64,000 bases of DNA. Origin: an uncultured Flavobacteriales bacterium (GTDB lineage: Bacteria > Bacteroidota > Bacteroidia > AKYH767-A > 2013-40CM-41-45). The position numbers and the translations under genes were made by a program. Below, in pieces: positions 15,241 through 59,324 of the stretch. The DNA lies in assembly GCA_964544885.1 (NCBI GenBank), contig CAZJDX010000004.1, positions 100,293 to 164,292 on the forward strand, given 5' to 3'. Position 1 is the stretch's first letter, and each line of letters opens with the position of its first letter. Below the pieces are notes generated by a model, which was given only the letters and a program-made list of their open reading frames with translations, made no database searches and was not told where the DNA came from.

Positions 15241-18200
15241 TTAATTCTTTATGAACCTGACCTGTCGTGGGTTTTCTGTCCTGTCAACATGATCGAGTTT
15301 CAGGTAATATACACCCGGTGAAAGTTGTTCTATATTGCTCTGAAGAATATTGGCGCCGCGCTGGGTTCCGAATCTTTCCCAACTGACCAGTTTTCCATAC
15401 ACATCCAGAATCTGCACATTGATCACACTTTCATATTCTTCAAAGAAGGAATAAGTGATGGTGGTTCTGGCAGGATTAGGATATACTGAAAGCGCGTCTT
15501 TGGTCTTCAGGCAGTTCAGGGCGACTATATCAGAAACACTTTCTGTTCCGTCTATATCCACCTGGCGTAATCTGTAATACACAACTCCGTTGCAAGGATC
15601 TTCATCCGTAAAATTGTATTCTCTTGTTTCGGTAGTAGTACCTGCGCCGTAACCATTGATCTGCGCGATCTTCACGAAATTTTCTCCATCATAGCTTCTT
15701 TCAAGAATGAAGTAATCATTGTTGATCTCGGATGCCGTGATCCACTCACAACGGTTACCTCTTTCGGTATTCTCGGCCCGGAAGGAGATAAGCTCAATCG
15801 GAAGTGCGGTACCGAACTGCACCGTGGCAAAGTTGAAGAACCCGGTATTGCTTGCATCATAGGCATAACGGCGTGATGCAGGTTTTGGCGGAGGTGGGAA
15901 GGTCGGGTTACATGGACAGGTTGCTTCCATCGTCCAGCTTCCTGAACCGTTTACATCTTTCATAATGGTCAGTGCGGCGAATGATCCGGCTGCTCCGGCT
16001 GTAAAGAAGTCAATATAAGTACCTGCCGGAACAGCCAGGGTGGTAGCTGCGCTGAGAGTAACGGTGGTAGCCGTAACTGCCGTGATGGTGGCTCCGGGAG
16101 GAACACCAAATCCCAGTACATTCATACCCACACTCAGAGCAGGGAAACCGGGAGTCGCCGTTGATGCAAAGGTGAGTACGGTTCCCGGAGCGCCCTGCGC
16201 AACACTTACGGCATGACTGATGGATGCCGGCGTAGCCGTTCCCACGTAGTTTGAATAGGTACGGTTGTACAAAGTCATGGTATAGGTACCCGTAGGAGTT
16301 GCTGTACTGGAAATGGTATTCCAGTAACCGTGATTCAGCGCCTGACGAAGACTCCAGTTATAGCCCGAACATTCAAGCGGCGGATAAACTCCGTTCACGA
16401 GCGGCAGGTTGGCTCCGCCCCAGCGCAGGAAGCGCATCAACAGATTATAAGGAGCGCTTGGAGGAGTGGTGAATTCAATATTCGCTCTCTCCCAACCGGT
16501 GATGGCATCCCCGACAGGGAAATCATAACTGGCAACGCTGGTCCCAAAATAACGGCGCATCCATCCTTCAACATAACTGGCTGTATTTCCAATGGTCGAA
16601 GCGGCGCCGGCGGTATTGGTAATTACAACTTCATTCGTACCGGTAATGATCTTACCATTGGTAAGAGTCAAAACCCCCGCGGTTCCCAGTACCATATTGT
16701 TAAAGGCTCCGGCGCTCAACGTCACTGAGGAGTTGATCGTCTGGGCCATTCTCACATTGTTCAGCGTAAGAAGACTTCCATTATTGGTGAAGGTCTGTGG
16801 CGCCGCACCTATAAAGGAAAGCATGGATCCGGCAGGTGACTGAAATGTTGAGGTTCCGTTGAAGTTCGTGAAGTTTCTTCCTATTCTCAGATCAAACCCA
16901 TTGCAGTTAAATACACTCGTTCCGTTGACAGTACTAAAGTCCCTGGCAACCTCCACGATAGCATTCATCTGGACATTGCCACCGCTTTTATTGATGACAA
17001 GATTACCCATTCTGCTTGTGCCGGTTATATTTCCGTTAATGGTTTGATTGGCACTACCGATAAATTCAATGATAGATGTTGGATCAGCAATTAAAGTCCC
17101 ATCGTTTGTATAATTACCGCAAATCTGAAGAGTAACCCCTGCATTGATGGTGAGTGTGGCTCCGGGTCCGATATAAACATCCTTAACCTGCTCATTGGCT
17201 GTCAGTACCGGTTGGTTCAGGGGACCGGAGTTAATATTCGCACTGGTCACGCAACTGGGCGTACCGCATCCTCCCCAGTTAGCCACATCCGACCAGGTGC
17301 TGTTGGCACCGCCGGTCCAGCTTAAGGTGGCCGGTGAACCGAAATTCACCGGTGAGGAGGTGCCAAAGTCAAGGGTAAATCCGGCTGCAAGACCTGATGT
17401 ATTATTGATCATGAGCAGGTAAGTTTCACCGGCAGTGACCAGGATATCCTGTGAGAATGGAGGATTAACCGGCAGGCAAATGGTACAGGTTCCTATACTC
17501 TGCATTCCCGTTGTACCTGCCGTGGTGCTGTAATTACAAGCCGCAATGGTGGCTGCATTGCTCAGAACCTGGGCGCAGGCATTGGCTATGGTCGGATAGC
17601 TGGAAATATTCCAAAGCACCCAGTCATAATTAATATTGCTGGTCGGGATGATATCAAAGAACAGGTTACCGGTTGTAGCGATGTTGAAAGTGAACCAGGC
17701 TGAATTATTTTCTCTTGCACCTGTGGCTGGCACGCAGCCATAGGCAGTGGCTGTATTACCCAGGTCACAGATATTTCCTGCTCCCTGGAAGCCGGGACTT
17801 CCATAGGTTGTTTGCTGGGCGCAGATCTGTGTAGGCAGCACGCAATCCTGTTGCGGTATGGGTGCCAGCGGAATCGAATTATCATAAATCGTTATACCGA
17901 AGGTACCGGTGAGCGCATTTCGGCCGTCTACAACCACATAATAGGTTACGCCAGGAGTAAGACCTGTGGCAATCAGCTCAGAGGCAAAAGTGCTCACTCC
18001 GCATTGTGTATAGTCATCATTACAACTGACGGCGCCAAACGGTACGAGGGAGAAACAGAAAGCGCCCTGATAGATGGCTATTTGTGTATTGGTGAGCGTT
18101 CCAAGTGTGGTCCTTATTCTTACCTGTCCGGATGCAGGTGCTACGAAAGTATACCAAACCGTATTGAGTTCGCCTGCTCCTGAATTTGCCCAGCATGATG

Positions 18201-21200
18201 GGGCAGCACCGGCGCCATCCGGAGGATAAGGTTCACTCAGACCATTACTGCAGGAATTATATCCGGTATAGGTCGTTCCCAGCGTGACCAACTGAGCGTT
18301 ACAGGGAAGATCGTTGCTTGGCGGTCCAAGAGGACATGGGTCTGTCACACATATTTCAAAACCACCGCTGAGGCCGTTCTTCGCCCAGATCCTTATGTAT
18401 AGTGTTTCACCCGCTGTTCTTCCTGTAAGTGTAAGTGAGGGCATGGCTGGATTCACACTGCTGTTATCATTACATCCGATCTGCGTAAATGCCGTACTGC
18501 AACTGGCCGCTGAATAAACCGCCATCACCGCATCAGGGATGTTGATACTTCTTGTGTCAATGGAAACCTGGCCACTGGCGGGTACGGTAACCGAGAACCA
18601 AACATCCCTGCTGGTGGTATTGAAGTTTCCGCAGGTGGTGACCGTTGCCGGAACACCTGCCTGCACCGTGTTGGTGGCGCAAAGAGTAGTATAAGGTTTA
18701 TAGATACATCCGGCGCTTACTGAGAGCGGGATTGCCTGACATGGATTGTCATTGGGAACAGCCGTACTGCATGGAGTCTCAACACAGAACCCAAAATCAC
18801 CTGTACGGGTAGTGTTACCATTCCATATCCAGTGTCTTACATAAAGTATTTCACCCGGTACCAGTCCGCCTAGTGAGATATAAGGCATCAGTCCCGGACC
18901 ACTGAGGTCGTCGCAGGCAAGTTGTGTAAAGGTCGAGCAGTTGGTAGAACGGTAAACAGCCATCTGATCATCGGTAACACTGCCAGCGGCAGTAACAAAG
19001 TTCATGGTAGTAATTCCGGGAGGAACTACAACGCGGACCCAGGTATCATTACTTGGATTCCAGCCCGGCGCCCAGAAAGGATCGCAGTTTACCGGTGCGG
19101 GAATACCAGCCGTTACCGCAGTGGGTGTCTGACAACGAAGTGAGAGTGTGGTATAAGTATTACAGGTTCCAGTTGTAACAGGGAAGTCGTTTGTGATCTG
19201 GCAGGGTTCATCAGCCTGGTATGGATTGGGCGCAGAAAGAGGGGAGGTCTCATAGGCCGCCAACTGGAAGGTTCCTTCGTTAGCCGGCAGTGTTGATCCA
19301 TATGGCCAGACTCGCAGCCATAAGGTCTCTCCCGGCGTGAGTCCTCCGCAAAGAGTTATCTCCGGTGCCAGTCCCGGTCCCGCATCATCATTGCAGGCCA
19401 CCTGGGTCAGTGAGGTACAGGTTCCGCGATACACCTGCAGTACCGGATCACGCATACCGCCGGTGGTAGGACCGACCAGTCCGGTAATGGTAAGACCACC
19501 GGATGGAGGAACAATGATGCGGATCCATACGTCTATCCTCGGGGCGGTGGCGCAGGTATTTCCAGGCATACCGGTGGAAGTGGTAGCGCAAACATTGGTA
19601 AAGGTTGAATACACCGGTACTCCTCCGGTAGTGACAGTCAATGGCGTGGCGCTGCAGGGTTCGTCGTATGAATTACAGGCGGAACTGAGACAGAATTCAA
19701 TGCTTCCGTTAGACGCATTGTTTTCCGACCATACTCTGACCCAAACGACTTCACCGGGTGTTCTTCCGGTGAGAGCGACAAGCGGGAAGTTGGCATTGAT
19801 ACTCGAACCGTTATCCGCGCAGGCGATCTGGGTAAATGGACCTGCGCAACTTCCGGCTGAATAGACCGCCATAGCCGCATTGCCCATTGGATTGGTAGCG
19901 CCGGGGCGGGTATCAATCACCACGTTACCTGCCGCAGGGATCGTCACACGGAACCATATATCCCCACCGTTATAATTTCCGCAGCTTGGAGCGGGAACTC
20001 CGGTGGTTGCCGATGCGCAGTTATTCGAATATCCCGCGGCTGTCCAGGTACAGGTCGCGCCGCCGACAGCAAGCATTGGTACACCGGCATCACAGGGATC
20101 ATTATTCACCGGAGCCAGTCCGGCAGTGGCGATCTGTAAGGTGAATGGGATACAAGGCGGGGTGCCGTTGTTGTCAACCACTATGTAATAGGTGTTTCCT
20201 ACAACCAGACTCACGGATGAAATACTTACCGAGTTGCCGGTAGAATTGTTTGATGCGAGACAAACAACACCAGCGGCGGTAGGACAATCGTTCAGAACGA
20301 AGATCCCGGGATTGGAACCCGCGCCTGTATTGGTCACGTTAATGGAAATACAGGAGTTGGCGATAGAGGTAGGAGTATAGGTATAGACAAAGTCTTCTCC
20401 GTTCATGTAACTGCTGCTGCAGCCATGAGTGGAGTTATAATCATTTACTGCTCCGCAGGTTGTCTGGCAGTTTAAAGTAAGCGGGAGTGTAGTGGAAAGA
20501 GCCGTTGCATTGGCACAATTTGAGGCTCCGTAATTTTCCACGCAGATCTGGAATTCACCCTGTGCGGAGGCGTCGCCCGCAACACGAATATAGTACTGCG
20601 TTGCGTTACAGGCATTGGCCGGATCGCTGATATCTAAAACAGCATTGTTCGCGTTAATGGTGCCTCCTGTGCTGGCACAACCCATGGATACCAGCGCGCC
20701 GCAGGCACCGGAATATACTTCAACTGAAGTGGTAACTCCTCTGCATAAGGCTGCAAAATCTGTTGTGACCCGGAAGGAGGTGATGTTCGCCGGTTTGGTG
20801 AACCGATACCATACATCATTGGTATTGCCTGCATCGCATGGAGCGGCCGGGGTACCTGTATTGGTAGCACCGATGAGAGTTCCAATGGTAGGCGTGCAGG
20901 CTCCGGCAGGGATGCTTCCCAGATTAACCGCGTTAGCACATTGATCGTTGGCGGGTACGCCTTTGTCAAAAGTGATGTATTGAACCTGGGTTATGACAGT
21001 ATTAGCAGAACCCAGATTATTTATATTGGATGTCTCAACGGTTTTGGAAGCGCTTCCGTTCGTCCAGCCGGGCAGATTCACCGGAGCGGTGCTTTGCACG
21101 ACGGAATAAAAATCACCTCCGCAGGTATCGGCAAAACCTATGCTGGCACCTCCTGAAGTTCCGGAATAAGGGCCGTATGCCTGTGGGAGAGTCGTTACGA

Positions 21201-21825
21201 TAGGTTGATAGAAATACTGTATCCTGCCTCTGTTAGCTACCGTGGTATGCGTGGAAGAATAAAAGCGAACGCACATCTTGGCAAGGTATGCTGAACCTGC
21301 ATTCTTGTCCCAAACTACGTTCTGCCATTCCACATAGAATATTCCGTTAGCCAATCCCCCAATGGCACGGTATCCTGCTCCGGTGATGAGGTCATCCCAG
21401 AGTGGCGCGATCAGCGGGCCGTCTCCGGCAGGAATTGCTGTCAGATTATTGGCAGGCGTTGGACCAATGGGTGCAGGAGTACCAGCAGGCGCATTGGTAA
21501 GGATGATGAATCCGTTGGATGAAATGTGAAAGGCGCTATAATCCCTTCCTCCGAAATTCACGCTGAAGGCGGCCGTTCCGACTATGGCGATAGCGGGTGT
21601 GATCTGTTCATCGGTACCGGCAGCTATGGGTGAAGCCGTAAGTGCGCCGATGGTCGGATAAGCGATGTAGCCGTAGGTATCTGTATAGGTAATCCCTCGA
21701 CCGGCCTGGGCAAAACTGGTGTTCCACTGAAGGGAAATCAGCGTGAACAAGGCAAATAAAGTTTTAAGGAGAGTAGTTTTTTTCCACATGGTCAGGTATG
21801 GCTTAGCGTATGGTTTTTTAATCAT
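15241..21825 (-). CDS. Giant T9SS-secreted surface protein (2194 aa) with at least 7 tandem Cys-rich PPC-like (pre-peptidase C-terminal-like) repeats, a central beta-helix-like region and a type-A Por/T9SS C-terminal sorting domain. Probable adhesin. The true start is likely the internal Met of MWKKTTLLKTLFALFTLISL at about 21789, which gives a canonical signal peptide.
   Basis: A repeated ~95-aa unit carries conserved motifs (PC…A/L…C…DVW[YF]R[FV]T…G.V.I.T…AVY…C…C.D/ND) seven times: NDVWYRFT, GDIWFRVT, IDVWIRII, NDTWVRVV, RDVWFSVT, NTVWYTFV, NSAWFTFN. The C-terminal ~80 aa (…SVYPNPARTTITYSF…LSPGVYYLKLDHVD…) is a T9SS CTD. Composition is Thr/Gly/Ala-rich. Confidence 0.85.
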   Translation of the reverse strand: MIKKPYAKPYLTMWKKTTLLKTLFALFTLISLQWNTSFAQAGRGITYTDTYGYIAYPTIGALTASPIAAGTDEQITPAIAIVGTAAFSVNFGGRDYSAFHISSNGFIILTNAPAGTPAPIGPTPANNLTAIPAGDGPLIAPLWDDLITGAGYRAIGGLANGIFYVEWQNVVWDKNAGSAYLAKMCVRFYSSTHTTVANRGRIQYFYQPIVTTLPQAYGPYSGTSGGASIGFADTCGGDFYSVVQSTAPVNLPGWTNGSASKTVETSNINNLGSANTVITQVQYITFDKGVPANDQCANAVNLGSIPAGACTPTIGTLIGATNTGTPAAPCDAGNTNDVWYRFTKPANITSFRVTTDFAALCRGVTTSVEVYSGACGALVSMGCASTGGTINANNAVLDISDPANACNATQYYIRVAGDASAQGEFQICVENYGASNCANATALSTTLPLTLNCQTTCGAVNDYNSTHGCSSSYMNGEDFVYTYTPTSIANSCISINVTNTGAGSNPGIFVLNDCPTAAGVVCLASNNSTGNSVSISSVSLVVGNTYYIVVDNNGTPPCIPFTLQIATAGLAPVNNDPCDAGVPMLAVGGATCTWTAAGYSNNCASATTGVPAPSCGNYNGGDIWFRVTIPAAGNVVIDTRPGATNPMGNAAMAVYSAGSCAGPFTQIACADNGSSINANFPLVALTGRTPGEVVWVRVWSENNASNGSIEFCLSSACNSYDEPCSATPLTVTTGGVPVYSTFTNVCATTSTGMPGNTCATAPRIDVWIRIIVPPSGGLTITGLVGPTTGGMRDPVLQVYRGTCTSLTQVACNDDAGPGLAPEITLCGGLTPGETLWLRVWPYGSTLPANEGTFQLAAYETSPLSAPNPYQADEPCQITNDFPVTTGTCNTYTTLSLRCQTPTAVTAGIPAPVNCDPFWAPGWNPSNDTWVRVVVPPGITTMNFVTAAGSVTDDQMAVYRSTNCSTFTQLACDDLSGPGLMPYISLGGLVPGEILYVRHWIWNGNTTRTGDFGFCVETPCSTAVPNDNPCQAIPLSVSAGCIYKPYTTLCATNTVQAGVPATVTTCGNFNTTSRDVWFSVTVPASGQVSIDTRSINIPDAVMAVYSAASCSTAFTQIGCNDNSSVNPAMPSLTLTGRTAGETLYIRIWAKNGLSGGFEICVTDPCPLGPPSNDLPCNAQLVTLGTTYTGYNSCSNGLSEPYPPDGAGAAPSCWANSGAGELNTVWYTFVAPASGQVRIRTTLGTLTNTQIAIYQGAFCFSLVPFGAVSCNDDYTQCGVSTFASELIATGLTPGVTYYVVVDGRNALTGTFGITIYDNSIPLAPIPQQDCVLPTQICAQQTTYGSPGFQGAGNICDLGNTATAYGCVPATGARENNSAWFTFNIATTGNLFFDIIPTSNINYDWVLWNISSYPTIANACAQVLSNAATIAACNYSTTAGTTGMQSIGTCTICLPVNPPFSQDILVTAGETYLLMINNTSGLAAGFTLDFGTSSPVNFGSPATLSWTGGANSTWSDVANWGGCGTPSCVTSANINSGPLNQPVLTANEQVKDVYIGPGATLTINAGVTLQICGNYTNDGTLIADPTSIIEFIGSANQTINGNITGTSRMGNLVINKSGGNVQMNAIVEVARDFSTVNGTSVFNCNGFDLRIGRNFTNFNGTSTFQSPAGSMLSFIGAAPQTFTNNGSLLTLNNVRMAQTINSSVTLSAGAFNNMVLGTAGVLTLTNGKIITGTNEVVITNTAGAASTIGNTASYVEGWMRRYFGTSVASYDFPVGDAITGWERANIEFTTPPSAPYNLLMRFLRWGGANLPLVNGVYPPLECSGYNWSLRQALNHGYWNTISSTATPTGTYTMTLYNRTYSNYVGTATPASISHAVSVAQGAPGTVLTFASTATPGFPALSVGMNVLGFGVPPGATITAVTATTVTLSAATTLAVPAGTYIDFFTAGAAGSFAALTIMKDVNGSGSWTMEATCPCNPTFPPPPKPASRRYAYDASNTGFFNFATVQFGTALPIELISFRAENTERGNRCEWITASEINNDYFILERSYDGENFVKIAQINGYGAGTTTETREYNFTDEDPCNGVVYYRLRQVDIDGTESVSDIVALNCLKTKDALSVYPNPARTTITYSFFEEYESVINVQILDVYGKLVSWERFGTQRGANILQSNIEQLSPGVYYLKLDHVDRTENPRQVRFIKN

Positions 21826-47407: not shown

Positions 47408-47415
47408 TAGTTTTG
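47408..47415 (+). promoter_or_regulatory. Candidate Bacteroidota -7 box TAGTTTTG (TAnnTTTG), with an ATTG about 20 nt upstream, positioned about 40 nt before the likely true lipoprotein start at 47455
   Basis: Read directly: …cagATTGatgccggattgggtagggttTAGTTTTGaccc…. Confidence 0.3.
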
Positions 47416-48075
47416 ACCCATGATTTTAAAAACAACTCTAAAAACCACACTCTCATGAAAACGACAAGCACAATCACCCTAATCCTGCTTACCCTGATTC
47501 TGACTATTCTTTCTTCCTGCAGAAAGGATGATGAAACTCAACCAAAGAATAAAGCACCCGGACCGAACTATCCTGCTAATCCCAATAACCCGACTATCAT
47601 TAACGGAACGGACTATGTGGAATTCAAACTGGACGGAAATCAAATTATACTTAATAATTTCTCCTATACCCCGCCTGCTTTTAGTGTCGGAATTGCTTCC
47701 ATTTTGAGTGAACCGGTGATACCATTGTATCAGTTTATCGGACAATTTCATAGTCTTCCGGGTTCAGAAATGAGTTATGTTTTGATGAATCTTTCTGATA
47801 CGGTTCCACTAATTCTTGGCCGACATGATTTTCAGGGCTATAGTGTTTATAGACGATTTTCACTGAGTTTGATCACTAAAGACGGAAATTTTTTACTCCC
47901 TGATGGAAACTGTATCAGCAACATAGAATTCAGCAGGCTGGATACGATTGACGAAGGAAAGGTGGAGGGTACATTTAGTTTGTCAAACCTGAATCTACAG
48001 GACGCTGATGAAAACATTATATCCAGAAATCATTCAATTAATGATGGTAAGTTCAGTTTGACCCTGAAGAAATAA
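47413..48075 (+). CDS. Lipoprotein of unknown function (paralog A). The track start is a TTG; the likely true start is the ATG at 47455 (MKTTSTITLILLTLILTILSSC, lipobox LSSC).
   Basis: Signal peptide ending in a lipobox Cys; shares blocks with the next ORF (NGxDYVEFKLDGNQI and EGTFSLSNLNLQDADENIISRNHSINDGKFSLTLKK). Confidence 0.65.
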   Translation: MTHDFKNNSKNHTLMKTTSTITLILLTLILTILSSCRKDDETQPKNKAPGPNYPANPNNPTIINGTDYVEFKLDGNQIILNNFSYTPPAFSVGIASILSEPVIPLYQFIGQFHSLPGSEMSYVLMNLSDTVPLILGRHDFQGYSVYRRFSLSLITKDGNFLLPDGNCISNIEFSRLDTIDEGKVEGTFSLSNLNLQDADENIISRNHSINDGKFSLTLKK

Positions 48076-48101: not shown

Positions 48102-48671
48102 ATGAAAACTTTATCTCACTTTATGGTATTCTTTATTCTTCTGTTTGTATCGGCATCGTGTCAGAAAGAAGATGCTACCAGTCCGGCAATACCACCGGTT
48201 GTTAACGGCGAATTTATTGAGTTCAGAATTGATGGCCATCAATATAAAATAACAGGATCCACAGCAGGAGGCACGGTGAATGCTGATGCCGCAGCTATGT
48301 TGTTTGATTCCGGATTCCAGAAAGGGCTGGTATTTCGCTTTGTCAACATGGATCCGCTTCAAATGGTTGGTTTCACCGTTTACGACCTGACTTTCCCAAT
48401 GGGGAATCGGTATACTATTTCAGCTGATCCAAATCAGACAAATCCGTATAATCCAAGTGAATTTGGCTTTATTATGGAAGACGAAAGACAATATATTTTC
48501 TCTCTTGCTACAACAGGAAGTTTCGAATTTACCAGTATTGATAGTGTAGTTGGTGGAATTGTGGAAGGTACCATGCACCTTACGAACCTTGATCTCACTG
48601 ATGAGAATGGGGACGTTATTTCTTCAGGACATACATTGACAAATGGAAAATTTAGAGTGATAATTCAATAA
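48102..48671 (+). CDS. Lipoprotein of unknown function (paralog B), tandem duplicate of the preceding gene
   Basis: MKTLSHFMVFFILLFVSASC lipobox. Conserved blocks NGEFIEFRIDGHQYKI and EGTMHLTNLDLTDENGDVISSGHTLTNGKFRVIIQ align with paralog A. Confidence 0.7.
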   Translation: MKTLSHFMVFFILLFVSASCQKEDATSPAIPPVVNGEFIEFRIDGHQYKITGSTAGGTVNADAAAMLFDSGFQKGLVFRFVNMDPLQMVGFTVYDLTFPMGNRYTISADPNQTNPYNPSEFGFIMEDERQYIFSLATTGSFEFTSIDSVVGGIVEGTMHLTNLDLTDENGDVISSGHTLTNGKFRVIIQ

Positions 48672-50340: not shown

Positions 50341-51417
50341 ATGAAAAAGACAAACATTATCACCGCATTATTTATTATTGCCGCCGCCTTCGGTATTCCT
50401 AAATTAGTGAATGGAAAGGTTTGGCGGGTTAATAACACACCTGCATATAATCAATTTACGGGTGCTCCACCTTTTGAGGTCTTTAGTAATTTGGGTCAGG
50501 CCATAGGCGATCCGGACGTTGGTCAAGGCGATACTCTGTTAATTGAAAGTTCCGGAACTCGTTATCCAGGAGTAACATTAAATAAAAAATTGGTATTAAT
50601 TGGTACCGGATATTTCTTGGGTGAAAATCTCGGGAGACAACAGAATCAAACACCAGCAATTATTGATTATTTGATTTTCGGGCAAAATTCAAGCGGCTCA
50701 ACAATTATGGGATTAAATATCTCTGGAACCGCCTCATCTGGAGTGGCTTTATCGAATTTTAATCTCGATAGCATTGCAATTACCCGATGCTACATTAATG
50801 GAGACATTAATTTTCAGAATGGAGCTGGTATTATACACAATCGAATTATCATAACCAAGAACTTTATCACTGGTGCAATAGACCAGCCTGCTGGAAGTCC
50901 CGGAACAATTACAAATTTAATTTTTACAAATAATCAAGTCGGTTGGTACATGCAATTTGACGGAACGAACCATCATGGAATTGTTGAGAATAATGCGTTG
51001 GCTCGCGACATATATATTCAAGGGAACATCGTTTTTCGAAACAATATTATAACCGGTGGAACATTTGTCCAAAATCCTACCAATTCAAGCACAAATATCT
51101 ATAATAACCTTTTCAGCTATGCTCAACCGGCATGGTTGACGGGAGGTGATAACAATTTTGGAGTGGCTTCAAATATTATTTATCACTCTACAGGAACGAC
51201 TGATAGTATATTTACTCCAAAGGCAATAAGCGACTGTCCGCAGTGCTATCAGGGTTTTCCCGGTGGAACTGCCATGCTTGGTATGTTTGGCGGCAGTGAT
51301 CCGTACATATTAAGTGGAATTCCTGCAATCCCGACAATTTATCAGCTACAGACTCCTGTAAACGCACCACAGGGAGGCACTATTCAGGGAACTATCAGTA
51401 CACGTAGTAATAATTAA
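50341..51417 (+). CDS. Secreted right-handed parallel beta-helix protein (pectate-lyase-fold-like), function unknown
   Basis: Signal peptide. Repeated ~22-aa turns with Asn/Ile/Gly ladders (…NISGTASSGVALSNFNLDSIAITRCYINGDINFQNGAGIIHNRIIITKNFITG…); no T9SS CTD. Confidence 0.6.
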   Translation: MKKTNIITALFIIAAAFGIPKLVNGKVWRVNNTPAYNQFTGAPPFEVFSNLGQAIGDPDVGQGDTLLIESSGTRYPGVTLNKKLVLIGTGYFLGENLGRQQNQTPAIIDYLIFGQNSSGSTIMGLNISGTASSGVALSNFNLDSIAITRCYINGDINFQNGAGIIHNRIIITKNFITGAIDQPAGSPGTITNLIFTNNQVGWYMQFDGTNHHGIVENNALARDIYIQGNIVFRNNIITGGTFVQNPTNSSTNIYNNLFSYAQPAWLTGGDNNFGVASNIIYHSTGTTDSIFTPKAISDCPQCYQGFPGGTAMLGMFGGSDPYILSGIPAIPTIYQLQTPVNAPQGGTIQGTISTRSNN

Positions 51418-51435: not shown

Positions 51436-52446
51436 ATGAAAAAAATTAACGTGCATCTGCTCGTTCTGCTACTGTGTTGTTGTACTTGTACCGTATCGGC
51501 TCAAAATATTGTGAAAGCAGAATATTGGATAAACAGCGATCCCGGTATGGGCTTGGCAACAGATATCCCCGGAATTACACCCGCCCTTAATGTTGCAAAC
51601 CTGGTATTCTCTGTTCCCGCAACCATCAGTCCGGGTGTACATACGCTTGGACTTCGCAGCAAGGATTCAAACAATCGCTGGAGTCATACGAACATGTTTC
51701 CCGTACTTGTTTTAAGTCCGCCTTCTAATCCGATTATTGATAGTGTTGAGTATTTTATAAATACTGATGCAGGTTTTGGAAACGGAACAAAGGTATTGGG
51801 TATTACTCCCCAACAAACTATTGCTAATCTGGCCTTGACTATCCCCGCATCTCTTACAACAGGTATCCATACGATTGGTGTCCGGTCAAAGGATACTGAT
51901 GGAAATTGGAGCCATACCAATTTTTATCCGGTTCTGATAAATGATTCCACATCAGCAGGAGTTATTGTTGCCATTGAATATTTTTGGGATGTTGATACGG
52001 GTTTTTATCAAAACCTGTCCTATACACCTACAGGTATTGTAAGCGACCTCAACAATGAATTGATGAATATTAATGTTCCATTTAATTTGCCATTTGGACA
52101 ACATACTGTTTTTATGCGAAGTCGGGATAGCAGAGGTAGATGGAGTCATACCAACTATTCTTCGGTAAATGTAGTGGATTCGAACTCTGTTGGCATGCAT
52201 GAAATGGAACACAGCAGTATTACAGTCTATCCAAATCCATGTATTGATCACATTACAGTCTCATCAGTAAATAATCAAAAAATTCGAGTGATTCTGTACA
52301 ATGAAAGTGGCCAACTCATTCTCGACAAAAGCATAGAGCATTCAGAGCAAATTAATACCTCACAGTTTGCTCCGGGTGCATACACTGTATTCATTTGGTC
52401 AGATCAAAATAAAATTTATAAGACAACTCTTCTCAAAACAAGATAG
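51436..52446 (+). CDS. T9SS-secreted protein built from three tandem ~85-aa repeats of an unassigned domain plus a type-A T9SS C-terminal domain
   Basis: Repeat starts are EYWINSDPGMG…, EYFINTDAGFGNG… and EYFWDVDTGFYQN…, each ending …RSKD(S/T)…(R/N)WSHTN(M/F/Y)…V. The C-terminus (…ITVYPNPCIDHITVS…LYNESGQLI…APGAYTVFIWSD…) is a T9SS CTD. Confidence 0.75.
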   Translation: MKKINVHLLVLLLCCCTCTVSAQNIVKAEYWINSDPGMGLATDIPGITPALNVANLVFSVPATISPGVHTLGLRSKDSNNRWSHTNMFPVLVLSPPSNPIIDSVEYFINTDAGFGNGTKVLGITPQQTIANLALTIPASLTTGIHTIGVRSKDTDGNWSHTNFYPVLINDSTSAGVIVAIEYFWDVDTGFYQNLSYTPTGIVSDLNNELMNINVPFNLPFGQHTVFMRSRDSRGRWSHTNYSSVNVVDSNSVGMHEMEHSSITVYPNPCIDHITVSSVNNQKIRVILYNESGQLILDKSIEHSEQINTSQFAPGAYTVFIWSDQNKIYKTTLLKTR

Positions 52447-52817: not shown

Positions 52818-55800
52818 TCAATACTTAATTAATTTTACCGGCTTTTCCGGAGGAACCGAGATAAAATACACTCCTTTTAGTAAAGTGCTTATATTGACAA
52901 TAGTGATTTCCGGTTCTATTTTTCCTGTAAATAATTTTTGCCCAAGCAAATTATAGATTGTGAAATCAGAACCGGCCAAATGACTCTTTGTACGGATCTG
53001 AAATTCATTTTTAGCAGGATTTGGAAAAACAATGACATTGGAATTGAGATTTTCCTGCTTCCTTAATAATAAATTGCTGAGGGTGGGAGTCGGCTCGAGA
53101 TAGTATATCGATGTAGTTCCATCCGGATACCTTCCCCAGGTTGAACGGTTGCTTTGTATTGAAAAAGATAAACTATCAATCAACAAATAATCATCCAATC
53201 TTCTCTGATAAATTCCCAGTGATTCGCCGGAAGCATTTAGTTTAAACGCAACATGCTTGGCGCCTTGTTCAATCTGATTGTCGGCCCACAAAATATAATA
53301 TCCTCCGGCAGGAATAATAGTTAATGCCGGGAAATTCAAAGGTAATTGATGTTTGTCGTAATTTGATATTTGATCCGTTAAATAAAGTCCGCCGAGATTG
53401 ATCGGACTGCCGCTGCTGTTAAAAATTTCAAACCAGTCATCATATTCATTGAAATCGTCTGCTATGATTCCGGTGTTAGAAGCCATTACTTCATTTATAA
53501 ATAGACCACTGAAATCAGGTGGAAGAGTGTTAGCAGCTCCGGAAGAGCCCATGAGTAAAAAACTTTCGTGCCAATCCTGAACGAGATTTCCTTCTTTTGA
53601 TTCATTCAGTTCCAGGGTTGCCCCTCTGCCATCAGCCAATGCCGGCCATGGCCTGGAATCGGAATATCTGATGCTATGGATCAGGTTGCCGTTATGATCG
53701 TATAGTGAAATCTTATCGGATTTATTATCCAATTCATAAAATAAGTTTCCGCATATATTATTTACAGCAGGATGGTAGGATTTAAATAAAAGCGTGTCCT
53801 CGCAAATCACCAGATAGTCACCCGGCAGAATAACTGTATTTTGCTTTAGTGAAAAGTTATTTTTTACAGTACTTAATCTCCATCCGCTTACATCAACCGC
53901 CTGGCTGGTTCTGTTAAATATTTCTACCCAATCACCCGTATTGTAATTGTCAGCGGAATGGTAGTTTATTTCATTTATATGTACAGTTAACCCATAATTG
54001 CCATGATGAGTATAATAGGCGCCTATATCAGCAGCAGAGCTGTCAGGGTCAGGTGGTGACAGTGGGTTTCCCGAATCAATACAGGGTGAGGTGTTTTTAA
54101 GCTGCAGATTACCTGTTGTTGCATGAATAAACTGAGGGTCAGCAAAAATATTATGATTGCCTGTAAGCAATTCTTTATCTGAAAGAGAATAGCTGATTTC
54201 TACTTCTGATTTATCGTCAATCGAAACAGTTTCATAGATTGACCCCGCCAAAATGGAGTTTTGAATAAAAGCTTTTCCCCCGCCCCTAAGTGTACTCTTT
54301 TCATAACATGCAATGGAATGGTGGTTTCTGTAGAAAGTATTTTGGTTCAGATAGGCAACTGATGAACTGTCTTTAACTCCGATTCCTAAACCACAGTCGT
54401 ATATCAGGTTGCGGTAGATCGTTGCATTTGACTGTGAGCCAATAGAGATACCTTTATCTGTACAGTTATAAATTATGTTATTTTCAACAATATTGTTGAC
54501 GGAATTTATTCCAAAATCAATTCCATCGCAGTTCGTGCCTGAGAAATCATGGATATAATTGTTCTTAACCACAGCATTAGTAACTCCCTTTAAGTCCAAT
54601 GCATCAGTATCCGTAGCTTTATTGCCATTGAAAGAGCAATCTTCAACGATTGGGTTATTAATATTGTTTAAACTGATGAATCCATTGCAAGGATTGAGGG
54701 TGTGAAAGGCAGAGTTCCCAATATATACATTACCACCCTCTGCATAAAATGGCGGCCCGCCATCTGAAATATCCGAGTGTTCAAATCGTATGTTTGCATT
54801 GTAAGCGGAAATGGTCGAAAAATATTTTATCGGGTCATTACCGTAACTTCCATTACGAATATTTACATATTGTATAAGAATCGAGTCGCCTGGATTATCA
54901 GCAATGATACTGCCCCACCGGATACTTGCTTTATCATTTTTAGATGAATAAATTGTGTCGGCACGGATACTTATCAAACTGTCCGGCGTGCCATGTATTT
55001 TTAATCCACCTTCAACATAAATAGATTTATTCTCGCAAATAAATATTTCAACACCAGGTTCAACTATGAGTTTTGCGCCAGGTTTAATAATTACATCCTC
55101 TAATCCATACCAGGGTGAATAAGCCACACTGAGTATGGTATCATTTTGAATCAGTGGAGGTATTATACTGATTGGGTCAGGAGCAAAGACTGCCGTAATG
55201 CTTGTGTCGCTTACCGGAATAAAGACCATTTCCGGAGATGTGTTTCCTGATCCTTGCCATTCAATAAATTTATAGCCCGGTTTGGGAAAGGCTTTTAATT
55301 TTATTGGAATGTTTTTAAAATATTGGCCAGAATATATTGAGTCTTTTAATAATACGCCACACAAAGATACATTTCCCCCGCCGGAAATATTTATTTCAAC
55401 ATGTGCACTATCCTGAATTCCGAATTGAGTAGTAATATGTTGACGAAGATGTTCTCCGCGATATTGTAAAAAAGTTTTGATAAAATCAATGTTGGAATGC
55501 CAGGATGACAGCGACAGAGGCGTACCCCATTTATTAATGTGCCTTGGCATTTGAAGACTTAGAAGTGCTTTTAAACTGTCTGCAATGGGCAAAGTAACAG
55601 CGGGATTAAATACTGTATTCAAAAAAGTGGATGTACGTTGTATAAAATCATTTTTGAACCCCTCATTTTCCAGCAGGTTTCTGAATAAAAAAGTTGACCA
55701 ATCAGGCAGGTTTCCGGTAATTCCTGAAACTTTACTCAACGTGTTGTCCATGTAATCGTCTCCGCCTAATTTTCCAAATGCATGTTCATTGTCGTTTGTA

Positions 55801-57353
55801 ATCCAGCGCCACTTGCTTTCAGTATCATTGTTTCTCCAATACTTATTATTATAATCAACAATCCAGTAGCCGATAAATATTTTATGAATTATGTAATTGG
55901 TAAATTCATGAATGTCGATTTGTTCAGAAACGTAATGGTAATTATCGTCCACACTCAGGTCATTGTTTTCAATAAAGTAAATCAGATTATTATAATGGTT
56001 TCTACTGCCTGAGACGACGCTTATACTGTCTTCGAGAAGATCAAGGTTGGCATTATTGGTGTAGTGATTGTTTGAAATATAGTTTTCATCCAGCCTTTCT
56101 CTTATTTCATAAATGCCGTTGTACTGTCCATTGATAAAAACAACACAAGGCTGATATTCCTGATAATCCACGTCTATTTTATTTTTTATCAGAGAGGTGG
56201 ATAAGCCCTCACGGAAATAGGAAAGATTATAATCGTTACCGCCATTTCTTAAGAGAAAGGAATAATAAACGACGGATTCTCTGTCATTAAATAATTTATA
56301 GTTTATTTTATCATCGCCGTATTTTGATTTTACTTCGAGAGAAATTGGTCTTTGAGGTAAATTGAAAATGCTTGATCCGAATAGTTTCGCACCGGCATTT
56401 ACATTAAATTTTCTTTGTTTATTCAGATCAAAATATTCAACATAAGCCGGAACTTCTCTACCCTTCATTGCATTTTGCAGTATGCCGTATTCAAAGTCAT
56501 AGAAGTTTGAAATGTCTGTGGAAATTGAAATAACAGGAAGGTCGATGTTTTCATTTATGAAATAGGATTTAGTAATGACCTTACCCGGTAATTTTCCCGG
56601 TTGGTACGCACGAGCTTTGATAACATAATTACGTGCAATGTTAAGGCTTCCGGTAAATACAGGAGAACTTTCAACCGGTGTTGTTCCATCAATGGTAAAC
56701 CGTATGAGAGAATTGGGTTCCGAAGAACTGATTTGCAATTGTTGAGCAGAAGGGTAAAAACCCTCAGAAATTGAGAATATCGGTTCGGATGCATAATTCA
56801 GGGACGTTGAACCGAAAGATGAATTAATTTTACCGGGCGTAGGTTCACTGTAATAATACCATCCCTGGGAATTTTGATTATTTCTTCCAATTGAAATATC
56901 ATATTCCTGTACATCTAATTTCAGACTATCCTCAAGTTCTTCATGATTGTTATATAGATAAATTGTTTCGCCCAGACTGCTGACCTTAAAGTTAGCATGT
57001 AAAGAGTTTATGGTAATTGTATCATTTTTGTATTTACTGTACGCGCGTTCTCCGGGATATTTGGATTCCCCGTCCGTCCATATAATCAGATATTGATCTG
57101 CTGACAAGACCTGGGATGGCAGTATCCATTTTCTCTTTATATCAGGATCATCAGTAATAGAATAGTTTTGGAGATTGATAGCGTATGCGGCTGTATTGTG
57201 TAACTCAATAAAATCCGAAAATTCTCCAAAATCAGGATCGCTTAAAACGGAACTGTTAAGGGCAAGAATTTCATTTATTCTGATTTGCGCATTTAAACAC
57301 AGGCTCAGTAATATGAAAACAATGAGCAGTGAATTTTTCATAGGATTAGTCAT
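52818..57353 (-). CDS. CotH-kinase-family protein with three lamin-tail domains (LTD), a central parallel beta-helix region and a T9SS C-terminal sorting domain (1511 aa)
   Basis: LTD motifs: INEILALNSS…DFIELHNT…INLQNYSITDD (N-terminal), VHINEINYHS…DWVEIFNRT…VSGWRLS, and LFINEVMASN…DWFEIFNSS…LGGLYLTDQ. CotH core: …VVFINGQYNGIYEIRERLDENY… and …NNKYWRNNDTESKWRWITNDNEHAFG (the GKW-W-DlD-sFG-like signature). Beta-helix repeats (…NNIVENNIIYNCTDKGISIG…). C-terminal …VFPNPAKNEFQI…IYNLLGQKL…KGVYFISV = T9SS CTD. Confidence 0.85.
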   Translation of the reverse strand: MTNPMKNSLLIVFILLSLCLNAQIRINEILALNSSVLSDPDFGEFSDFIELHNTAAYAINLQNYSITDDPDIKRKWILPSQVLSADQYLIIWTDGESKYPGERAYSKYKNDTITINSLHANFKVSSLGETIYLYNNHEELEDSLKLDVQEYDISIGRNNQNSQGWYYYSEPTPGKINSSFGSTSLNYASEPIFSISEGFYPSAQQLQISSSEPNSLIRFTIDGTTPVESSPVFTGSLNIARNYVIKARAYQPGKLPGKVITKSYFINENIDLPVISISTDISNFYDFEYGILQNAMKGREVPAYVEYFDLNKQRKFNVNAGAKLFGSSIFNLPQRPISLEVKSKYGDDKINYKLFNDRESVVYYSFLLRNGGNDYNLSYFREGLSTSLIKNKIDVDYQEYQPCVVFINGQYNGIYEIRERLDENYISNNHYTNNANLDLLEDSISVVSGSRNHYNNLIYFIENNDLSVDDNYHYVSEQIDIHEFTNYIIHKIFIGYWIVDYNNKYWRNNDTESKWRWITNDNEHAFGKLGGDDYMDNTLSKVSGITGNLPDWSTFLFRNLLENEGFKNDFIQRTSTFLNTVFNPAVTLPIADSLKALLSLQMPRHINKWGTPLSLSSWHSNIDFIKTFLQYRGEHLRQHITTQFGIQDSAHVEINISGGGNVSLCGVLLKDSIYSGQYFKNIPIKLKAFPKPGYKFIEWQGSGNTSPEMVFIPVSDTSITAVFAPDPISIIPPLIQNDTILSVAYSPWYGLEDVIIKPGAKLIVEPGVEIFICENKSIYVEGGLKIHGTPDSLISIRADTIYSSKNDKASIRWGSIIADNPGDSILIQYVNIRNGSYGNDPIKYFSTISAYNANIRFEHSDISDGGPPFYAEGGNVYIGNSAFHTLNPCNGFISLNNINNPIVEDCSFNGNKATDTDALDLKGVTNAVVKNNYIHDFSGTNCDGIDFGINSVNNIVENNIIYNCTDKGISIGSQSNATIYRNLIYDCGLGIGVKDSSSVAYLNQNTFYRNHHSIACYEKSTLRGGGKAFIQNSILAGSIYETVSIDDKSEVEISYSLSDKELLTGNHNIFADPQFIHATTGNLQLKNTSPCIDSGNPLSPPDPDSSAADIGAYYTHHGNYGLTVHINEINYHSADNYNTGDWVEIFNRTSQAVDVSGWRLSTVKNNFSLKQNTVILPGDYLVICEDTLLFKSYHPAVNNICGNLFYELDNKSDKISLYDHNGNLIHSIRYSDSRPWPALADGRGATLELNESKEGNLVQDWHESFLLMGSSGAANTLPPDFSGLFINEVMASNTGIIADDFNEYDDWFEIFNSSGSPINLGGLYLTDQISNYDKHQLPLNFPALTIIPAGGYYILWADNQIEQGAKHVAFKLNASGESLGIYQRRLDDYLLIDSLSFSIQSNRSTWGRYPDGTTSIYYLEPTPTLSNLLLRKQENLNSNVIVFPNPAKNEFQIRTKSHLAGSDFTIYNLLGQKLFTGKIEPEITIVNISTLLKGVYFISVPPEKPVKLIKY

Positions 57354-57635
57354 TTACATCCAGAATGCTTGTAATTATGCACAATGTAGTTTACGTACTT
57401 CTTCATACTTTTTTGCTTGATCAAAAAAGTATGCAAAAAAATCAAGCCAAATTCCCGCCTGCAACGGGCAGGGATTCTGCCTGCCGCACGAGCAGGCGCT
57501 TCCCGCCGCAATTAATCAAATTCATGCTTCGAATTGTATATAAATAAAATTCCATTTTGCCTCTAAAAATTTGCTCACAAAAAATTCAGAGCACAATTGA
57601 TAAGGATTATGGAACTAAGTGGTTAATCCTATTTT

Positions 57636-59324
57636 TCATTCCCTGATTAATTTATGTATAGCTCTGTTGTTTTTTGAGTCAACAACAACAAAGTAGATCC
57701 CGGATGCAATTTCATTTGCGTCAACTTTCAGTATTTCAAATGGTGAATTGTGATAATCGGATCTGATCAATCGTCCATCAATTGAATAAATAGATACCTT
57801 GGTTCCTGATACAGGTTTAGTCAGAAACTTTATGAAGAAAAAATCGTTTGCCGGATTTGGGAAAAGAGAAATTTTCATTGATTTGTTCAGTTCATCTATA
57901 TTGATTGTAGAATCATTTTCAAAATAACTTATAAAGCTTACTTGTTTTTTTCCAAAGCGAATTGGGCTTATGTGAACATAAATACTGTCCACTTCCCCGC
58001 TATTTTCCAATACATGACTATCGAAGGTTATAGTGTCCGATTCAAACATACCTCCATAATAGAAATTTTCATTTGATGCGGCCATAACAATAGTTGCCTC
58101 GTCAAGTAAGTGTCCTCCGAAAAAATTTCCCCATAACTCATCTCCTGTTGGTCCATACTTAAGAACAAATGCCTGGGGGTAATAATAACTTATGTAGTAT
58201 TCATTCAGGAGTGTTGTGTTGGCAAAATGAAGTGTATCGCTGAAAGAAAATCCTGCAACATAAGAATTGCCAAATGCATCAACTGTGATAGCTCTGGCAA
58301 GATCATAGTTTTCATCGTATATGGAACTCGAGACTCCTCCGTTTTCCTTTTGCCAGATTTTATTTAAAGCACTGTCAAGCTTGGTTACATATATTTTAGA
58401 AGATTGAAGTGGCCAGCCCCAGCCCATCCTCCATGTCATTTTTTCACCGCAGGTAAATAGTTCATTGTTGAGAGATGTTATATCGTTTACCTGGGTAAGA
58501 CTGGTGTCAGCGATACCCGACATGTAGAGACCGGCTGAATTGTATTTTACAATAAAGCCACTTTGTGTTCCATATCCAATAGTGTGTGTATTGCTGAATG
58601 TAGCGTAACCATAAAAGGATCCGGAGAGATAAACATTTTGGTTGTCATCCAAAGTTAATGATGTGGAAGTCATGGAATTGAAACCGACACTATCCGTGGT
58701 TCCGGATACTTCCCACAAGAGATTATTGTTGTTGTCATACTTTTTTACAAAAACATTGTAAATTGGATGTAGAGAAGAGTGACCGCTTACATAAACATTT
58801 CCTGAGCTATCCACACCTAACCCGGAAATTACGTCAGCCAGATTTGTTCCAATATTTCGTGCCCATTCAACAGTATTGTTAGAATTGAATTTAACAAGAA
58901 AACCATCTGATTCACCTGAGTTAATTAATACAGAACTACCGATGGTCAGTGATAAGCTATAATAGGTTCCGGCAACATAAATGTTACCCATACTGTCGGA
59001 TACGATATTCGAAATGTTATCCGATTCAAGACCGCCGATTTTATTTGCCCATAAATAATTCCCGTTCTTGTCCATGACAACGAAGAAGGCATCTTCCTGA
59101 CCTGAATTGGTAAGTGTATGCGAGTTAAATGTTAGGGTTGGAGAGGTGAATGAGCCGGCTATAATTATATTGTCACCGCTATATTTACAAATGGCATTCA
59201 GTTTTGTATTGCTGTTTATAAGTCCAATCTGATTTGCCCACTGGCAATTTTGTGCTTTTGTGTGCATATTGATTGAGAAGCAAAGACACAGGAAAAGCAG
59301 TCTTAGGTAATGTTTTATTTCCAT
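57636..59324 (-). CDS. T9SS-secreted SBBP-repeat (beta-propeller) protein
   Basis: Signal peptide; repeated …(N/G)N(I/V)Y(V/L)(A/S)G… SBBP-type blades (NIYVAGTYYS, NVYVSGHSS, NVYLSGSFYG, NSYVAGFSFS); C-terminal …LFPNPANDFFFIKF…IYSIDGRLI…SGIYFVVV = T9SS CTD. Confidence 0.8.
   Translation of the reverse strand: MEIKHYLRLLFLCLCFSINMHTKAQNCQWANQIGLINSNTKLNAICKYSGDNIIIAGSFTSPTLTFNSHTLTNSGQEDAFFVVMDKNGNYLWANKIGGLESDNISNIVSDSMGNIYVAGTYYSLSLTIGSSVLINSGESDGFLVKFNSNNTVEWARNIGTNLADVISGLGVDSSGNVYVSGHSSLHPIYNVFVKKYDNNNNLLWEVSGTTDSVGFNSMTSTSLTLDDNQNVYLSGSFYGYATFSNTHTIGYGTQSGFIVKYNSAGLYMSGIADTSLTQVNDITSLNNELFTCGEKMTWRMGWGWPLQSSKIYVTKLDSALNKIWQKENGGVSSSIYDENYDLARAITVDAFGNSYVAGFSFSDTLHFANTTLLNEYYISYYYPQAFVLKYGPTGDELWGNFFGGHLLDEATIVMAASNENFYYGGMFESDTITFDSHVLENSGEVDSIYVHISPIRFGKKQVSFISYFENDSTINIDELNKSMKISLFPNPANDFFFIKFLTKPVSGTKVSIYSIDGRLIRSDYHNSPFEILKVDANEIASGIYFVVVDSKNNRAIHKLIRE

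Follow-up and report, generated by a model that had tools for sequence, protein, structure and literature searches.

A putatively exported CotH-fold protein with an altered active site belongs to a conserved, multidomain family of uncultured Bacteroidota and is paired with a beta-propeller gene

The function of the thousands of CotH proteins that bacteria secrete is an open question (PMC12484212). The window analysed here, 64,000 nucleotides of contig CAZJDX010000004.1 (positions 100,293 to 164,292) from an uncultured Flavobacteriales bacterium, raises this question at a single locus, since its minus strand carries one open reading frame (ORF) of 1511 codons (52818..57353) in which an initial, sequence-only reading recognised a CotH kinase joined to three lamin-tail domains (LTDs), a beta-helix and a type IX secretion system (T9SS) sorting signal. 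Does a CotH domain exported in such company act as a kinase on an extracellular substrate, or does it have a non-catalytic, adhesive role? We found that, within the CotH superfamily, the protein falls into a clade that is both distinct and old. All of its domains, the fusion of LTDs to CotH and the orthologues themselves, under generic database names, were already known, and this is not a categorically new system; what is new is the recognition of a deeply branching clade whose CotH active site is altered, together with its fixed nine-module architecture and its beta-propeller neighbour.

The protein consists, in this order, of a predicted signal peptide, LTD1, a CHB_HEX_C/Fn3_assoc module, the CotH domain, an InlB B-repeat, a beta-helix, LTD2, LTD3 and a T9SS C-terminal domain (CTD). 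Residue numbers follow the 1511-residue ORF, in which the true start is Met5, and all modules are encoded on the minus strand. The CotH domain (residues 265-650, Pfam core 325-636; 55404..56561) matched PF08757 with an E-value of 4.8e-39 and 135.2 bits (gathering score 23.8), over positions 4-322 of the 322 in the profile. The LTD profile PF00932 matched the whole protein in three stretches (E 1.3e-42). When fragments were scanned separately, LTD1 (residues 23-144, scanned as 22-144; 56922..57287), LTD2 (1123-1231; 53661..53987) and LTD3 (1282-1383; 53205..53510) scored 48.8, 67.6 and 47.3 bits, respectively. As each isolated fragment passes the gathering score of 34.3 bits, the initial placement of one LTD at the N-terminus and two near the C-terminus is correct. 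The beta-helix (735-1100; 54054..55151) was matched by Beta_helix PF13229 (E 1.4e-12) and by NosD (E 2e-6). The CTD (1442-1511; 52821..53030) was matched by the NCBIfam model TIGR04183 for type A sorting domains of the T9SS (37.9 bits where 23 are required) and by Por_Secre_tail PF18962 (E 3.6e-9, 37.2 bits, cut-off 27; residues 1442-1501 of 1511), and resembles the T9SS CTD structures 8glj_D and 8glk_D by sequence. All the domains named in the sequence-only reading are therefore present, each with a significant profile hidden Markov model (HMM) match (PF08757, PF00932, PF13229 and TIGR04183). Two modules had been overlooked: the CHB_HEX_C_1/Fn3_assoc beta-sandwich (197-264; 56562..56765; Pfam E 9e-13 and 3.5e-12), whose PDB counterpart is the C-terminal part of beta-hexosaminidase 6q63, and the InlB B-repeat-like module (Flg_new_2, PF18998; 657-726; 55176..55385), found with an E-value of 6.6e-7 in the whole protein and 1.6e-8 as an isolated fragment.

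Searches of the PDB with phmmer and with profiles, using as queries the whole protein, an alignment of 43 full-length sequences and an alignment of 17 CotH domains, did not reach Bacillus CotH even at an E-value of 10, and the link was therefore made by structure prediction and Foldseek. An AlphaFold 2 model of residues 265-660 (predicted local distance difference test score, pLDDT, 86; predicted template modelling score, pTM, 0.87) had as its top PDB matches the Bacillus cereus CotH structures 5jd9/5jda (E 6e-14, template modelling score 0.70/0.76, 16% identity), followed by distant matches to PI3K and HipT kinases. The active site of CotH is reportedly defined in Nguyen et al. 2016 (PNAS). 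In B. subtilis CotH the catalytic Asp is D228, and both D228Q and D251A are inactive (PMC7821199); D251 is the Asp of the DFG-like DxD motif. In the B. cereus sequence, which a PDB search with B. subtilis CotH as query had yielded, the counterparts of these two residues lie within N-F-D-G-F-V-H-N and P-W-D-Y-D.

The register of the active site was established by three approaches, namely hhalign against B. cereus CotH, MAFFT with LTD-CotH paralogues and hmmalign of 137 representatives, all of which agree that D521-N-E523 corresponds to the DxD motif, N502 to the metal-binding Asn and Ile498 to the column of the catalytic Asp; in hhalign, the DYD motif of B. cereus CotH falls on D521-N-E523. The catalytic loop is one residue shorter, with FIGYxIxDxNN against the canonical NxDWPxxN, the latter being part of the motif NxDWPxxN...DxD[FY] of canonical LTD-CotH paralogues in the MAFFT alignment. 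In the model, a helix (481-493), a loop (494-503) and two strands (504-508 and 515-519) precede D521, which fits the succession seen in kinases (alphaE, catalytic loop, beta7, beta8, DFG). The variant loop GYWIVDYNN (residues 495-503) is encoded at 55845..55871, and DNEH (521-524), in which the counterpart of the DxD/DFG metal site precedes the clade-specific His524, at 55782..55793, both on the minus strand.

We compared 94 family members with the 137 nearest CotH domains outside the clade (representatives of clusters at 50% identity). The column of the catalytic Asp contains no Asp in the family (I 78, L 12, S 2, M 1, V 1), whereas 93 of the 137 non-clade domains have Asp there and another 13 have it one column earlier. 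The beta3 column, assigned by alignment with EKKSYHV of B. cereus CotH rather than from a nucleotide-bound structure, is R in 77 and K in 17 family members, against K in 131 of the 137. The metal site is kept: N502 and D521 are present in all 94 family members and in all 137 other domains, and the E523 column holds E (92) or D (2) in the family, against D in 124 and E in 12 outside it. Immediately after it, the family has His524 (H 92, R 2), where non-clade domains mostly have F, Y or L. The retained nucleotide/metal half of the site comprises Q334-R/K335, R369, E419, N502, D521 and E523. Three changes on an otherwise frozen site define the clade: Ile/Leu in place of Asp, mostly Arg in place of Lys, and His in place of Phe/Tyr.

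The name CotH kinase therefore holds for fold and family, while canonical kinase activity is doubtful, the catalytic Asp being lost in 94 of 94 members. Of the residues that the sequence-only reading had proposed to align to B. cereus CotH, the metal-binding set survives and the catalytic Asp does not, and the putative beta3 position is Arg in most members. The loss of catalytic residues, which that reading took as a sign of a pseudokinase scaffold, has thus occurred in part. With its metal-binding residues kept but the catalytic Asp gone, the protein is unlikely to be an ordinary protein kinase. In the usual sequence-based sense, in which at least one canonical catalytic motif is absent from an intact fold, the domain is a predicted pseudokinase, a label that does not in itself prove inactivity. 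The retained metal ligands and the invariant His nevertheless favour a ligand-binding or non-canonical catalytic site over decay. Asp500, two residues ahead of N502, was considered as a relocated catalytic base and rejected, as it is D in only 76 of the 94 members (Q, E, N, G, L or F in the other 18) and F, Q, T, V or another residue in deeper members of the clade. A second and separate group of secreted CotH proteins without the catalytic Asp (P0103, P0107, P0110, P0114 and P0117) has the loop NTSWxHN and the metal site DxDR, where a basic residue again comes next. Judging from these motifs, loss of the Asp and gain of His or Arg after the metal site may have occurred more than once in the CotH superfamily.

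The architecture is that of an established and widespread orthologous family, not a one-off. A search of 5.8 billion proteins identified 301 relatives at an E-value of 1e-10 or better, 120 of which were listed. Approximately 100 of these 120 are full-length (~1500-1580 aa) with an identical Pfam domain set, and the full-length relatives among the matches listed are 34-86% identical over 96-100% of the query. More than 90 orthologues (~1520 aa, 35-86% identical) keep the complete architecture; the names given to them vary between 'parallel beta-helix repeat protein', 'T9SS type A sorting domain-containing protein', 'lamin tail domain-containing protein' and 'CotH kinase family protein'. Conservation is high from end to end and peaks in the CotH and beta-helix regions: in the 94 sequences, 184 positions reach 97% or more. 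These near-invariant positions, together with the more than 90 full-length orthologues, rule out a chance or degenerate ORF. A profile of the CotH domain reached 12,801 cluster representatives at 50% identity; the clade with the DxEH motif always has the beta-helix, the LTDs and the CTD, its deepest members included. In a scan with one genome per species, the full-length type was present only in metagenome-assembled genomes (MAGs) of uncultured Bacteroidota, labelled mostly Saprospiraceae, Lewinellaceae, Chitinophagales or Saprospirales, with a few carrying other bin labels. A literature search for CotH together with T9SS returned nothing relevant, and a link to the 'grappling hook' T9SS substrate GhpA of Aureispira was ruled out, as CotH, LTD, beta-helix and propeller go unmentioned in the GhpA paper.

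The clade can be set against three known groups of proteins. With Bacillus CotH (PF08757; 5JD9/5JDA) it shares the Pfam family, the atypical kinase fold, the NG...E hinge region, the metal-binding Asn, a DxD-type site (D521/E523) and a gene that lies beside a conserved neighbour, but it differs in the replacement of D228 by Ile/Leu, the shorter loop, the mostly Arg beta3 position and the new His. Moreover, Bacillus CotH acts in the mother-cell cytoplasm, whereas the window protein is a nine-module protein with predicted Sec/T9SS export. Canonical secreted LTD-CotH proteins of Bacteroidota and Clostridia (for example P0098, P0100 and P0112-P0120) have the same N-terminal core of LTD, Fn3_assoc/CHB_HEX_C and CotH, are 30-38% identical to the window protein over its N-terminal half and in many cases carry T9SS CTDs, in some also beta-helices. 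In contrast to the clade, they keep NxDWPxxN with the catalytic Asp, the beta3 Lys in QK and a DxD followed by Phe/Tyr, and the distant-paralogue loci examined (L056-L084) are without the SBBP partner gene described below. The cellulosomal Cthe_0239 ('LTD, LTD, Fn3, CotH') and CseP of C. thermocellum are examples of this canonical type. The Fam20 family of the secretory pathway, which includes glycan kinases and the pseudokinase partner Fam20A, offers by analogy a precedent for a kinase fold outside the cytoplasm in glycan-directed and non-catalytic roles, but it works in the ATP-supplied lumen of the Golgi. CotH has been described as a distant relative of Fam20C, and Bacillus CotH phosphorylates the products of the adjacent cotB and cotG genes of the cotBGH cluster (PMC7821199), while the function of the LTD-CotH proteins of cellulosomes is unknown (PMC6083626, PMC12484212).

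The second conserved region of the protein is the beta-helix. Its model (residues 735-1120) has a pLDDT of 94.5 and is almost all beta-strand across 735-1100, and both profile (PF13229, PF05048, TIGR03804) and fold identify it as a right-handed parallel beta-helix of the CASH type. It comes nearest to AlgG and to polysaccharide lyases; the top Foldseek matches were lacto-N-biosidases, AlgG, PL6 alginate lyases, Pel9A, chondroitinase B and RbmB (E 1e-6 to 1e-4). On successive turns lies a row of charged residues, D917, D920, D943, D946, D966, K967, K994, D995, E1018 and K1019, which are invariant in 94 of 94 sequences. This row resembles a polysaccharide-binding or polysaccharide-cleaving cleft, a resemblance that does not establish catalysis. 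The likeness to PL6/AlgG-type enzymes is one of fold only: AlgG (4NK8), PL6 alginate lyases and the Klebsiella K1 capsule lyase are 10-18% identical to this region, with no sequence-family match. The catalytic DPHD motif of AlgG/AlgE is absent by eye, with GIDFG where GIDPHD would be expected in a register that is not alignment-based.

Conservation extends to the neighbouring gene. Directly upstream of the CotH-family gene, on the same strand (57636..59324), lies a gene encoding a 562-residue SBBP beta-propeller protein with a type A CTD (Pfam SBBP E 9e-16, Por_Secre_tail E 1e-13, and a TIGR04183 match as well). On four long contigs with orthologues (L001-L004), the sole common neighbour is an orthologue of this partner, directly upstream, 33-41% identical to the window partner over its full length; on three of them the partner gene runs into the start of the CotH-family gene, and on the fourth it stops 22 nt short of it. 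We then surveyed 80 genome loci, all of them from MAGs apart from a Cellvibrionaceae and a Breznakibacter genome with distant paralogues only, taking as informative those with a full-length relative and enough upstream DNA, and found the partner directly upstream in 40 of 43. Seven of these 40 partners are only 20-26% identical to that of the window, with profile HMM E-values of 5e-81 to 2e-49. At three further loci the C-terminal end of a partner lies at the contig edge, while three loci of a subgroup of 37-38% identity are without it. Among the distant-paralogue loci (L056-L084) there was no partner except at L059, a truncated locus of the full-length type. The CotH-family gene and its partner are thus a two-gene module. 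The other neighbours, a response regulator and a Y_Y_Y sensor kinase upstream and T9SS proteins downstream, are not conserved in L001-L004. The window has a single copy of the partner; several relatives have two in tandem (L001, 6444-10032; L002, 4705-8032; L005, L006, L014, L018 and L039).

In the window, the two genes are separated by an insertion of 289 bp (57342..57630, no strand assigned). A direct duplication of 9 bp, ATTTTTCAT, borders it on both sides (57333-57341 and 57631-57639), and it ends in 31-nt imperfect terminal inverted repeats that are 77% complementary, the signature of an element resembling a miniature inverted-repeat transposable element (MITE) with its target-site duplication. 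The locus of an 86% identical relative (L030) has no insertion: there, the stop codon of the partner overlaps the start of the CotH-family gene as ATGA, GGAATGAAAAAT, and the 289 bp of the window sit exactly at this junction. The insertion contains GC-rich hairpins, including a terminator-like one at 57454-57472, and a perfect 12-bp inverted repeat, CATACTTTTTTG/CAAAAAAGTATG, and it may uncouple the two genes transcriptionally. No second copy was found in the window, and two probes had no exact match in metagenome contigs. A promoter and terminator scan, with promoters limited to the sigma-70 type, returned sites no more numerous than in shuffled sequence.

The insertion also explains the length of the ORF. 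Its first ATG (MTNP...) lies inside the terminal inverted repeat; the duplication regenerated an ATG, and the extra codons MTNP are the terminal repeat of the element. The gene, encoding an LTD-CotH-beta-helix-LTD-LTD T9SS cargo protein, is therefore 52818..57341 on the minus strand. The true start is Met5, the ATG at 57341 four codons downstream, on the grounds of identity with the database protein P0001 (1507 aa), the lengths of P0002 and P0003 (also 1507 aa) and the alignment with L030; P0001 and the 86% and 69% identical relatives begin with MKN or MKK. The 1511 residues first reported are consequently right for the ORF, and the gene product has 1507. Read by eye, its N-terminus looks like a typical signal peptide, MKNSLLIVFILLSLCLNA (57288..57341, minus strand), with n, h and c regions ending in NA before the predicted cleavage at Gln23, a residue that is invariant among 43 aligned orthologues.

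What, then, might this protein do? Tentatively, and with slightly less than even confidence, we read it as an exported, non-canonical CotH ligand-binder combined with a glycan-engaging beta-helix and a cooperating propeller partner. The protein would cross the inner membrane by Sec and the outer membrane by T9SS, to be displayed on or released from the surface, attachment to the cell being the probable outcome. There it would not act as a conventional protein kinase: the CotH module may bind a metal-phosphate or nucleotide-type ligand and then either support non-canonical chemistry with His524 or serve as a ligand-binding pseudokinase. The beta-helix would bind, and possibly cleave or modify, a polysaccharide outside the cell, probably an acidic one; the LTD and Ig-like modules could be spacers and anchors, and the whole may work with the SBBP beta-propeller, which would be co-transcribed and co-exported. 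Bacterial LTDs have no known role but accompany secreted phosphoesterases and sugar-binding proteins (PMC6085458), and CotH genes are present within the Pel polysaccharide loci of streptococci and clostridia (PMC7112168). Several points weigh against the reading. Adjacency of the two genes is evidence of co-inheritance and not of physical or functional interaction. The charged row overlaps in part with the generic PbH1 repeat motif (xDGIxL) and may for this reason be structural, while no polysaccharide lyase or glycoside hydrolase family was matched at the sequence level in Pfam, and PDB profile matches were weak (E 0.006 or worse). Furthermore, a role of His524 or Asp500 as base is judged from the alignments and not from coordinates, Arg sometimes substitutes for the beta3 Lys, and some kinases function without the canonical Asp.

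A competent secreted Ser/Thr kinase of the CotH type, phosphorylating extracellular or surface proteins such as its beta-propeller partner, seems to us very unlikely. The strong Pfam match and CotH fold, the invariant metal-binding Asn and DxE, the positive charge kept at beta3 and an Asp500 in most members are all consistent with it. However, the Asp is absent from the catalytic column in every member, the loop is shortened, Asp500, replaced in 18 of 94 and lost in deeper members, is no conserved stand-in, and no ATP supply is known in the periplasm or outside the cell. The conserved adjacent gene does recall the cotBGH cluster, but the equivalent D228Q substitution inactivates B. subtilis CotH (PMC7821199). 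Changes in two of the three motifs classical for kinases (Arg for the beta3 Lys, no catalytic Asp) fit with a non-catalytic surface adhesin or scaffold, in which CotH would be a dead pseudokinase serving as a binding surface and the beta-helix and LTDs would be adhesive or structural, for attachment to cells, filaments or particles; a binding role of this kind has been proposed for Mucorales CotH3 with GRP78, and some Mucorales CotH proteins are receptors for human GRP78 (PMC9973265). We regard this as possible but doubtful, because N502, D521, E523, H524, R369, R381 and E419 vary little or not at all among sequences that are only 35-50% identical, which is conservation beyond the level usual for a pure scaffold, and because the beta-helix row has ten invariant charged residues.

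Those charged residues, an invariant D/K/E row on successive turns, would suit a polysaccharide lyase, epimerase or depolymerase in which the beta-helix is the sole catalytic domain and CotH, LTD and CHB_HEX_C are targeting accessories, and CHB_HEX_C modules typically accompany glycosidases. Nevertheless, identity to every solved enzyme is 10-18%, there is no CAZy-type sequence match, and the fold is no proof of catalysis, because NosD, adhesins and tail fibres score nearly as well. Such a protein would also leave the strict conservation of the CotH metal site unexplained, and we consider it distinctly unlikely. Also unlikely, if somewhat less so, is that the DxEH clade has branched off the CotH kinase fold as a new kind of enzyme, in which the Asp was exchanged for His-based or non-kinase chemistry on an extracellular anionic polymer, obligatorily with the SBBP partner; the candidate reactions would be transfer or hydrolysis of phosphate or nucleotide on a glycan or anionic polymer held by the beta-helix. 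Taken together, the protein is probably a surface polymer-binding or processing module and not a canonical kinase. Of the two branches that the sequence-only reading had left open, an extracellular substrate or a non-catalytic, adhesive role, the latter, or else non-canonical chemistry, is the more likely.

The remainder of the window is an ordinary Bacteroidota chromosome, with genes for MurB, YidC, PurL, two-component systems and a TonB-dependent receptor. Four more of its proteins bear a CTD, among them a subtilase and a protein of 2194 aa; these four, and the fact that the relatives are Bacteroidota, indirectly support a T9SS in the same genome. The 2194-aa protein (15241-21825, minus strand) is a T9SS cargo protein with GBD_T9SS_assoc and a type A CTD, mostly without Pfam match, and lies in the part of the window with the highest G+C (0.50-0.53). 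Between 44000 and 60000 the G+C is 0.36-0.40, against 0.42-0.53 elsewhere in the window, and the genes are mostly for proteins that are secreted or lipoprotein-like, for T9SS cargo and for two-component regulators; this stretch could be an island, or could merely reflect the composition of surface-protein genes. It contains two adjacent lipoprotein-like ORFs on the plus strand (47413-48075 and 48102-48671; 220 and 189 aa) without Pfam match, whose C-terminal halves are visibly alike (LSNLNLQDADENIISRNHSINDGKFSL and LTNLDLTDENGDVISSGHTLTNGKFRV), which suggests from the sequences that they are tandem paralogues. Two further plus-strand genes, convergent to the CotH-family gene and not conserved in L001-L004, encode a protein of 358 aa (50341-51417) without Pfam match that reads like beta-helix repeats (NRIIITKNFITG, NLIFTNNQVG, NIVFRNNIITGG) and, after it, a T9SS CTD protein of 336 aa (51436-52446) with three internal repeats of ~90 aa.

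A role has been established only for Bacillus spore-coat CotH, as a kinase, and for some Mucorales CotH proteins, as receptors. The family described here is a clean natural experiment: its catalytic Asp and, mostly, its beta3 Lys have changed, the metal site is frozen and a new His has appeared, while the fusion partners and the neighbouring gene are fixed. It therefore makes it testable whether secreted CotH modules are kinases, enzymes of another chemistry or binding modules, and interest in the family would rise if the DxEH site carries new chemistry. In fresh water and activated sludge, Saprospiraceae, Lewinellaceae and Chitinophagales are prominent as epibionts and as degraders of polymers, and the protein may therefore bear on how its hosts attach to, or process, extracellular polymers.

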